In this document: one piece after another, positions 6,001 through 9,000 of the stretch
Layout: every line of letters begins with the position of its first letter
Numbering within the stretch: the first letter of the stretch is position 1
Origin: a virus
Taxonomy: Duplodnaviria > Heunggongvirae > Uroviricota > Caudoviricetes
Virus record (IMG/VR): IMGVR_UViG_2671180458_000016
Coordinates: 1 to 42,985 of that record
DNA length: 42,985 bases
Reading direction: 5' to 3' (one strand)
Program-made: the position numbers

Positions 6001-9000
6001 AATCGAGTTCGTATTTATGAAAAGCACGGTCGATTCCGGCATTATTTATTGCACTGTATTCCGTATCACTGAAGAAAGGTGGAAATACGATGTATCCTTC
6101 CATTGTCAGCGCCAGAACGCGCGGATCGGTTTCTGTCAGCCATTCGTTTTCTGTGAATTCTTCAGAATTAATTTCAATGATTTCAGGTTCTTCTTTCATG
6201 GTTACTCCGTGTTCATCCGGTGTTAATTACTTTTATTCACTCTGAGCGCAGCCAGAAGATGTGGCTCAGCAATTCGTTTGTTGCGATATATTTGTGATAC
6301 AGCCTGGCCTTTTCAGGTTGTAAAAATCCCCGACAATAAAGCTGTAAATTAATTACTGTTCTTAAATAATGTTATTCGTTTTCAGTCCGGCACAGATGCT
6401 TTTCTGCTTTGTCTGCTGTACAGGATAATGAGCGGAAAAGACAATTCATCATGTTTAGCGCATCTGGTGAACCAATATCACCGCTGTCAATAATCACCTG
6501 TAACAAAGACAGGCTTTCTGTTATCTCGCAGTGGACATTATCGAGTACTTCAACGCAATTATTCATTTTTCATTATCTCCGTTATTCCGGGGGAGGAGCT
6601 ATGCTGTTAATGATTAACGCATCCGGTAATATGCCCCTCTTTAATGTAATCGATGCATTCATTCAAAAGTTCATCAATGATTAACTTTCCTGATTCAGTC
6701 AGATACTCACCATGTTGGTTGATACCGACAGCATCCTGGTATGCAGTGCGTATTGCTGTTTCACCATCTTTCCGCCCAAACTCACCACGGGTAACGCCTT
6801 CAAATCGTAATAGCAACTGGCTTATGAACTGTTCTGTTATTTCAATAGTTGTTAACTCTCCATCATGACGCTTTACAGTGAGGAGATTACTTCCTGTTTT
6901 TCGTTTCATCCGCCGCAGTGCTGCAACCGTTATGCGGCGACGATATGCAGAAATGTATTCATCTTTCATTTGTTATTTCCCGTATGCCTTTTTGAGAAAC
7001 AATACTGCAACTGACCAGTATCCGGCATCAGCCATTAATAAAGCGGTTTTATAGGCATGTTTGTCTTTCATGTGTCATCCCCATTTTAAAATAGTGAGAA
7101 CTCCCGACCGTAGACCGTCATGTTTTTATGTATGATTGTCTGTTTAATTTCCTTTATTCGTTCTCAGAGCATCAACATACTCGTAAGCCTTTTCACAGGT
7201 TTTATTCATGGAACGAATCAGACAAAGTAAGAAATCATCTGTCTCTCCGTTATCACCAGAGTTTTTAAATATAAACTCAAGCATTGACGTGTTTTCTTTT
7301 ATTTCTGCTGCCACTTCCTCAAGCATAATCAGGGGAGTTTTCATGTTCTTTGTTCCTTAAATGCATCGCATGCGCTTCTGGCGTATTGTTGTGCCAGTAA
7401 AAAGATGTCATCCGAAAGTTCATCACATTCTTCATCACCGGAAGCCGAAATGATTAACCCCGCTTCAAGCAGTACTGCAATGTGATGAAAAGCTGTTTTC
7501 GGTTCGTTGGTGAGGCCTTTGAACATTTTCATCTTACGATTCCTTTGTCGTGTCAGAATGGAAACTTGTAAGTAACCACATCGGATCGCAGTCAAGTATA
7601 TTTGCCAGAGGAATCACCTGGCTTGCCAGAGGTTCAGCCTTGCCGTTCTCCCACTGGATGATGGTTTCTTCATCAACTCCAAGCAGCGTGGCGAGTTCAG
7701 CGGTGGATAGACCGCAGCTTTCGCGTTGGGTGCGGATGCCATCACGGCAATCTTTTTTGTTTCTCGGAGGTAACAGAATATGTTTTAGTTGTTGGATTTT
7801 TTCGATTCCAACCTCAAGGAGTACGTGACGGTTTCTTTCCGATACAGACTCGAGACTTTCATGAAGCAGCGATTCTACTTGTTCGATAAGCATCAATTGT
7901 GAAGTAGACATAAAAAAACCTCGTAACCAATATTTCGAAATCTAGGTTACGAGTGAGTAATGTAGGTGTCAAGAGCAATTAATGTTTTTTGTTGAATTAA
8001 ATTTGCATACGCATCTCAACGACAACACCAATAATTTCGCAATCCCCATTGATGGGGATCAGTGGATAGCGTGGGTTTAGTGGCTTTAGGAAACATTGCC
8101 CAGCGTCTTCTATGTACTGTTTAAGGGTTGCCTCTCCGGAGTTTTTGAGCCTGGCGACGACATATTTTCCTGAAAAAACTTCTTTGTCAGGGTTAACAAG
8201 AATGTTCATGCCTTCAAAAATAGAGAACTCTCCATTCTGTGATGTCATTGAGTCCCCTTTCACTTCCAGCCAGAAGCCGTGATCGCCCGCATATATATCA
8301 CTACCAATCCATTCTTCTGGATAAGCTATGTAATCTTCGCAGTTCCAGGGGCCAGCACTCACCCATGTTAGTTTCGGATATCTATAACGGTTTGGAGAAA
8401 CTGGCTTAGGATTTCGGACGTTTTGAATGCTATCTGTAGGTGATGGGGCGCTGCCGTCAAGAAGCCATTTAGGAGAGCATTTCAATGCATCCGCGATTCT
8501 AAATAGGTTTGAAGATCTTGTGTCTTGTGAGTCTCCTAACTCTATTTTGCTGATTGTTACACGCGAGACACCAGTCAATTTTGCCAGGTCATCTTGTGAC
8601 ATTCCTAGCTGTACTCTGCGCATTAACAGTCTGCCACCAAAGCTATCGTGATCCATCTTCTCCCCCTTCTTGTCGAAATAATCGTTTCGAAACAAATATA
8701 GCAAAAAATCTTGAAATCTAGATTTCGGAAAATTAAGATTAATCGAAACAAACGTGTCGAGGTGGATATGGATTTGTATGAAATTCTAAAAAACATGTTT
8801 GGATCGAATGTTGAAATAGGTCGTTATTTTCCCCGAAGGGGAAGGGCTAGAACCGGACAGGCTGTAGGTAAGTGGAAAACCCGAGGTGTGCCGGAAGATG
8901 TGGCGATCCTTTGTCATCTGGATCCCAAAATTCCTTATCAGCATCCGTCGCTCATGAATGCCAGTCATGAATCGTGATGTTCTGCCGGAGGCTGTATGTC

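Follow-up and report, generated by a model that had tools for sequence, protein, structure and literature searches.

Two unrelated families of small acidic proteins, predicted to form helical hairpins, beside the repressor gene of an Escherichia coli lambdoid prophage

What do the short genes next to the repressor of lambdoid prophages encode, and what might their products do? In many E. coli prophages, Shiga toxin (Stx) phages included, almost every gene of the early-left region is annotated as hypothetical. The question is addressed here for IMG/VR virus record IMGVR_UViG_2671180458_000016, of which the whole stretch of 42,985 nucleotides (the window) was analysed, and in which three genes on the minus strand encode small acidic proteins: A (6372-6566; 64 amino acids, isoelectric point (pI) 4.45), B (7144-7344; 66 amino acids, pI 4.64) and C (7341-7532, from the ATG at 7532; 63 amino acids, pI 4.71). 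A preliminary description of this DNA had located these three open reading frames (ORFs) and a fourth, shorter one, and the ORF calls agree with it on all four positions as well as on the small size and acidity of the three products. It had also taken A, B and C for three paralogs with a common core, produced by duplication and diversification and possibly directed against the host.

A and B are established as true paralogs by comparison of their amino acid sequences. BLASTP aligns them at 38% identity over 53 amino acids (E = 6e-9), and their Smith-Waterman score of 79 was reached by 0 of 2000 shuffles (23 +/- 4.4). Both match PHROG 6882 at full length (A at positions 1-64, E = 8.6e-31; B at positions 1-63, E = 4.5e-38), and a family hidden Markov model (HMM) built without A-type sequences recognizes A at 42.9 bits (E = 1.6e-15). 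The family signature is MKTP..ML(E)..A.EI.E..SLLE.IY...(loop)...D...CL[IL]RS..KT....Y, with L22, C41, R44, S45 and T49 invariant; the CL[IL]RS motif reads CLIRS in B and CLFRS in A, both of which share T49 and the E17/L22 core, and is missing from C. Most members are about 50-80% identical and carry an invariant polar stripe, C-x2-R-S-x3-T. B is a typical member, and A is a solitary, divergent paralog of B.

The same pairwise and profile comparisons that put the similarity of A and B far above chance leave C at chance level. BLASTP finds no match between C and A, and E = 0.33 between C and B; the Smith-Waterman scores of C against A and B (20 and 22) do not exceed the shuffle means, being equal to them or slightly lower. 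Against the 42-sequence A/B HMM with filters off, C scores -1.3 bits (about 0), hhalign assigns a probability of 0.5% to the alignment of this A/B profile with a 32-sequence C profile, and an exhaustive HMMER search of 1.84 billion representative proteins with the A/B profile returned 51 clusters, none of them C-like. C matches PHROG 4587 at full length (positions 1-62, E = 5.2e-33) and PHROG 6882 not at all; remote-homology clustering in PHROG keeps the two apart, and neither has a functional annotation. The C profile recovers only C among the ORFs of the window, and the signature of its family is F.GL...P.DA...I....EAG.L(I/L)S...(loop)...(L/I).D.....A..YA..A. C is not a detectable paralog of A or B, and by these comparisons it is a member of a second family, unrelated in sequence.

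It is quite unlikely that C is instead a highly diverged copy of an ancestral hairpin in an array of three paralogs that arose by local duplication and diversification. All three proteins have 63-66 amino acids, are acidic, are encoded in one operon and are predicted to be helix-loop-helix proteins with an acidic loop of small residues, and in related phages both families occupy the same N-terminal position of the same helix-turn-helix (HTH) regulator. Nevertheless, every method from BLASTP to profile-profile alignment puts C at chance, the exhaustive HMM search does not retrieve it, and A and B are not adjacent and are each found without the other. The proposed common core fits B exactly, A only with an indel and C only loosely, and its SGD tripeptide lies in the inter-helix loop, where it is conserved in neither the A/B nor the C family.

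Duplication and diversification thus hold for A and B, as their BLASTP alignment and membership in PHROG 6882 indicate, but not for C, and not in the form of a tandem array. Because A and B are only 38% identical, are two genes apart in the operon and each occur in the absence of the other, the comparison identifies them as old paralogs that were united by mosaic recombination, with no tandem duplication in situ. A may be an extra copy gained by recombination, and would be the only A/B-type member in some phages. B-type genes without A are found in phi467-like prophages, and the phi467 locus itself has no A-type gene. Of 72 matching complete E. coli genomes, 58 have a match that covers less than 80% of the query; the one such match among those listed does not cover A. 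Loci L169 and L171-L173 have an A-type gene without B, in the order HTH gene, 88-amino-acid C-like gene, 120-amino-acid gene and A-type gene. There the C-B pair is replaced by the one C-like gene, which has a C-terminal extension (3242-3508), and the A-type gene two genes downstream is the sole member of the A/B family.

The A/B family, whose domain has roughly 60 amino acids, belongs to temperate phages of Enterobacteriaceae. Its distribution is narrow, being confined to Enterobacteriaceae phages and phage-like replicons. Plasmids were considered as a further context, but the matches are mostly phage-sized replicons of about 40 kb, so that no non-phage context is added. The record of Elizabethkingia phage EKP1 (OM284015.1) contains genes of the A/B family and of the 32-amino-acid family described below that are 54-63% identical to enterobacterial phage genes. 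A Bacteroidota host is unexpected, which suggests that the host assignment is wrong or that the record is contaminated.

The TGA stop codon of C overlaps the ATG start codon of B (ATGA), and the ORFs of this group have Shine-Dalgarno-like sequences and overlapping start and stop codons. From this arrangement and its recurrence, C is recognized as the conserved upstream partner gene of B, to which it is coupled in translation; A has no abutting upstream ORF. It is extremely improbable that the ORFs are chance open frames or decaying remnants without function: conservation at the protein level spans Escherichia, Klebsiella, Enterobacter, Citrobacter and others, substitutions are biased towards the third codon position (24 of the 37 differences between B and its orthologs), the translation signals just mentioned are in place, and A is found with its exact sequence in thousands of public assemblies (5236 blocks listed). 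The one feature of the kind expected from decay is an IS1 element inserted in gene C in several E. coli strains (including locus L181, 2259-3085) with B and A intact; since the prophage was retained in these strains, C is dispensable for prophage carriage.

The setting of these genes was compared among 80 viral loci with a relative of A or B, and then among loci around HTH fusions, with all ORFs scored by home-made HMMs for A/B, C, HTH and S24 domains. The layout is regular: a repressor gene, an optional gene for an Xre-type HTH protein, a small ORF of the C family and an A/B gene; as in the window, the stop codon of the C-family ORF overlaps the start codon of the A/B gene. Of the 52 distinct A/B domains, 34 are preceded by an abutting ORF of 50 or more amino acids, which belongs to the C family in 28 of the 34; the remainder are of other hairpin-like families, or, in one locus (L084), the HTH regulator itself. 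Another seven of the 52 have a different hairpin of about 62 amino acids fused at the N-terminus, three are the N-terminal domain of an HTH-HTH protein that is followed by a free C-like gene, two are A-type domains that both stand alone, and six have no upstream ORF of at least 50 amino acids ending within 12 nucleotides of the start of the domain. Proteins of about 130 amino acids were considered as fusions of C to A/B and rejected, their N-terminal hairpin being of a different family.

Many A/B proteins are about 140 amino acids long and possess a second, C-terminal helix-loop-helix domain, which is encoded as a separate ORF in L051 and L054. The existence of the same domain in fused and split forms is evidence of the Rosetta-stone type for pairing of one hairpin with another. 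A poly-C tract lies in the linker after the A/B hairpin in L051 (C10, 4190-4200) and L052 (C7, 4200-4207) and also in L054; it varies in length, and on this length depends whether the second domain is read in frame with the hairpin or from a separate, overlapping ORF. The tails of database representatives P0034, P0041, P0047, P0049 and P0058 look frameshifted. Slip-strand variation or sequencing error could account for this.

Domains of both families are also found fused to Xre-family HTH regulators at the same locus in related phages, and to judge from the sequences these fusions are the only positive clue to function. A C-like domain forms the N-terminus of the regulator in loci L011-L019 and in phage ASU11, in which gp50 consists of a C-like domain and two HTH domains (36% identity of C to the N-terminal domain, E = 1.5e-10). 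In the regulators of L086-L095, an A/B domain precedes two HTH domains, and this N-terminus is matched by B at E = 1.2e-10 and by A at E = 4.7e-8. A third type of hairpin, N2, occurs fused to HTH and also free-standing, directly upstream of C, in L083 and L049. When all hairpin groups were compared by hhalign (A/B, C, the N130 hairpin fused N-terminally to A/B, two types of C-terminal extension and five types of regulator N-terminus), the sole link was that of the C family with the regulator N-terminus of the phi467 type, that is, the N-terminus of the phi467 'DicA' protein (probability 90%). The occurrence of A/B, C and N2 types in both fused and free-standing form points to interchangeable hairpin families, unrelated in sequence, that serve either as free micro-proteins or at the N-terminus of a single conserved Xre regulator.

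A regulatory role is more likely for A, B and C than the host takeover suggested in the preliminary description, since related phages have these hairpin modules fused to a DNA-binding regulator encoded beside the repressor. The hairpins may mediate protein-protein interaction by pairing into four-helix bundles, C with B as heteromers and possibly A or B with itself as homodimers. Soon after derepression of the leftward promoter PL, they would act with or on the neighbouring HTH regulator, much as SinI antagonizes SinR by way of a two-helix domain common to both, and are less likely to be free-acting host toxins. As a whole, this regulatory module analogous to SinI/SinR is proposed tentatively, as plausible but short of probable.

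SinI is described in PMC3163267 as a small protein that binds SinR through residues conserved between the two and abolishes DNA binding; the heterodimer of the two is unable to bind DNA. The likeness consists in an Xre-type HTH regulator with a two-helix domain and adjacent small genes for free-standing homologs of that domain, and it holds for C-type, A/B-type and N2-type hairpins in related phages. The differences are that the hairpin is N-terminal to the HTH domain in these phages but C-terminal in SinR, that profile searches detect no sequence similarity of the hairpins to any solved structure, and that the regulator of the window itself has an N-terminus matching none of A, B and C.

Several observations weigh against this proposal. 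The Xre-type regulator of the window (125 amino acids; 7534-7911, minus strand) consists of a variable domain, the N-terminal 57 or so residues, and a conserved domain at residues 58-118 that matches Pfam HTH_3 at 2.3e-11. Related regulators have A/B-like, C-like or other hairpins at the N-terminus, but that of the window protein has no detectable similarity to A, B or C, so that the logic of SinI and SinR is seen only in its relatives. Phages of the SaltyDalty type keep the C and A/B genes in the absence of the HTH regulator, so that the pair does not require it for function. Upstream of A/B, several unrelated gene families replace one another while A/B is conserved, which argues against a tightly co-evolving heterodimer. 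Lastly, the modelled helical hairpin is a generic fold, and the fold searches retrieved only designed hairpins and coiled coils.

The N-terminus of the window regulator was also considered as a fourth, diverged copy of A/B and rejected (0 bits, no BLAST match). A mosaic junction lies in this gene at about 7737-7752: the match of related E. coli prophages to the window runs from 6300 and ends at 7737 or 7752, beyond which the sequences differ. The junction coincides with, or is a few residues away from, the border between the N-terminal variable domain (1-57) and the conserved HTH domain. Across loci, the type of the N-terminal domain tracks the type of repressor, a correlation that may come from linkage alone or from a functional connection with immunity.

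The main alternative, which appears somewhat doubtful, is that A, B and C are host-directed effectors, acting in anti-defence or host takeover, and that the HTH protein is only their transcriptional autoregulator, as in operons of anti-CRISPR (Acr) and anti-CRISPR-associated (Aca) genes. Such operons resemble the present locus in having small, acidic, diverse early proteins beside a conserved HTH protein, to which they are sometimes fused; AcrIIA1 and AcrIF24 are examples of such Acr-HTH fusions. In favour of this reading, A, B and C are small acidic products of early genes, several unrelated families alternate in the hypervariable slot upstream of A/B, different N-terminal domains can be exchanged on the conserved HTH domain, and C and A/B persist in phages without the HTH gene. 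Genes for Lar-like restriction alleviation and for anti-repression are annotated in the same operon of a relative. On the other side, A, B and C have no similarity to annotated anti-defence proteins or to PADLOC, Pfam or PHROG families of known function, and in the libraries searched they show no homology to known Acr or Aca families. CI and its operators already control the operon, and the A/B hairpin, with its 50-80% identity among most members and its invariant stripe, is well conserved rather than hypervariable or fast-evolving. Both the conserved translational coupling of C and B and the presence of two HTH domains in the fusions are features seen more typically in regulator subunits.

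The AlphaFold2 model of B is a confident helical hairpin (predicted local distance difference test (pLDDT) score 90.3; helices 4-28 and 34-64), and that of C has a like topology at lower confidence (pLDDT 67.6; helices 10-23 and 33-62). Foldseek searches of PDB and BFVD with the B model returned generic or designed helical hairpins and coiled coils (best PDB E = 0.4) and one member of the A/B family, from a Klebsiella phage. The fold is thus uninformative. Sequence-profile searches of PDB gave no significant match, the best being an unrelated protein at E = 0.4. Rop, the ColE1 repressor of primer, is a 63-amino-acid acidic helical hairpin that dimerizes into a four-helix bundle, and A, B and C resemble it in size, acidity and helix-loop-helix topology. 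They differ from it in matching no PDB chain by sequence, in that Rop is absent from the top Foldseek hits, and in that there is no evidence of RNA binding for the hairpins.

A, B and C have no matches in Pfam, NCBIfam or PADLOC, and the PHROG families to which they belong give no known function. Literature searches with the four WP accessions found nothing, and by their titles and abstracts the papers on phi467 are about the typing of Stx2f phages, the evolution of Stx phages or unrelated phages. The families of A, B and C are catalogued but uncharacterised.

Taken together, the paralogs, the coupled partner and the regulator fusions provide a testable hypothesis, that of hairpin-mediated partner switching on an Xre regulator. 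A broader version of it is rather unlikely as it stands: lambdoid phages of Enterobacteriaceae, including those of the Stx type, would carry directly downstream of the repressor a combinatorial toolkit of hairpin modules, phage-borne, modular and similar to SinI/SinR, in which hairpins of at least three families unrelated in sequence (A/B, C and N2) alternate between free micro-proteins and the N-terminus of the Xre regulator, and which would constitute a previously undescribed, partner-switching layer of the lysis-lysogeny decision. The hairpin locus may influence prophage induction and, therefore, toxin release, and the pattern of free or fused hairpins is a useful new lead.

The placement of A, B and C in a leftward early operon, also made in the preliminary description, is supported by the surrounding sequence. 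The window represents an E. coli lambdoid prophage inserted next to rcsB, which occupies bases 1-651; the integrase gene follows at 696-1985. The chromosome of E. coli strain JNEC-KY174 is 100% identical to the window across the region, and in a 100% identical E. coli chromosome the Prokaryotic Genome Annotation Pipeline (PGAP) annotates A, B and C as hypothetical proteins. The order on the minus strand is repressor, Xre-type HTH protein (the first gene of the leftward operon), C, B, a 32-amino-acid ORF, a 120-amino-acid ORF and A; beyond A are more uncharacterised genes, of which the last is an ORF6N anti-repressor-like gene. The repressor (7997-8704, minus strand; PGAP start at window position 8656) is of the CI/LexA type, with HTH and peptidase S24 domains.

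Repeat analysis identified operator-like 18-mers, TCGAAAT-N4-TTTCGA, on both sides of the repressor gene: two overlapping palindromes in the 85-nucleotide spacer between the repressor and HTH genes (7920-7953), and three sites of the same motif upstream of the repressor, which are candidates for the rightward operator OR (8673-8760, unstranded). A putative PL, with a -35 element TTGACA (7972-7967), a 17-nucleotide spacer and a weak -10 element TAACCT (7949-7944), lies just upstream of the spacer operators and forms with them a putative PL/OL region (7920-7972, minus strand); this promoter was read by eye and was not called by a consensus promoter scan. Since operator-like palindromes and a putative PL are present, the genes can be assigned to a leftward early operon, and as the sites flank the repressor gene, it is a reasonable inference that the operon is under CI/operator control. 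An Rfam scan of 6000-8100 identified no RNA family, and hence no small RNA (sRNA) of the DicF type between the small ORFs.

The 120-amino-acid ORF (6607-6969, minus strand), which lies between the 32-amino-acid ORF and A, belongs to PHROG 1737 (function unknown). It matches none of the A/B, C or HTH HMMs and is not a member of a hairpin family.

The possible 32-amino-acid ORF (6973-7071, minus strand) proved to be well founded. Its product, MKDKHAYKTALLMADAGYWSVAVLFLKKAYGK, is a basic micro-protein (pI 9.7) with 160 matches, representing 49 distinct sequences, among about 170 related loci. The family consensus is ..AYKTA.L.A..G......L.LRKAYG., and the gene is conserved downstream of the hairpin genes, with its stop codon 3 nucleotides before the start of the 120-amino-acid ORF. 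Members of the family occur in 34 phage records, among them those of Stx1a and Stx2a phages, phiP27 and Fels-1, and also in Cronobacter phages, and are often left unannotated. By its conservation, this ORF is a real, widely distributed gene that PGAP missed, and a widely conserved gene of 32-38 amino acids, often overlooked by annotation pipelines, has thereby been recovered.

Other features of the window lie outside the early-left region. A patch of low G+C content (0.36-0.43) on the plus strand at 14460-17737, between the Q antiterminator gene and the lysis region, occupies the site of stx in Stx phages. The genes in this patch, for a Type IIG restriction-methyltransferase (707 amino acids, PADLOC E = 3e-232) and a specificity subunit (364 amino acids), are prophage-borne defence cargo. 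Two Rfam matches above the gathering score, at 13961-14135 and 18090-18296 on the plus strand, are to sok antitoxin RNA and the sRNA STnc100; the sok RNA adjoins an annotated Hok/Gef gene. Beyond the tail genes, at the right-hand end of the window, a 398-amino-acid ORF (41504-42700, plus strand) contains YadA head repeats and a YadA membrane anchor, which are marks of a putative trimeric autotransporter adhesin.

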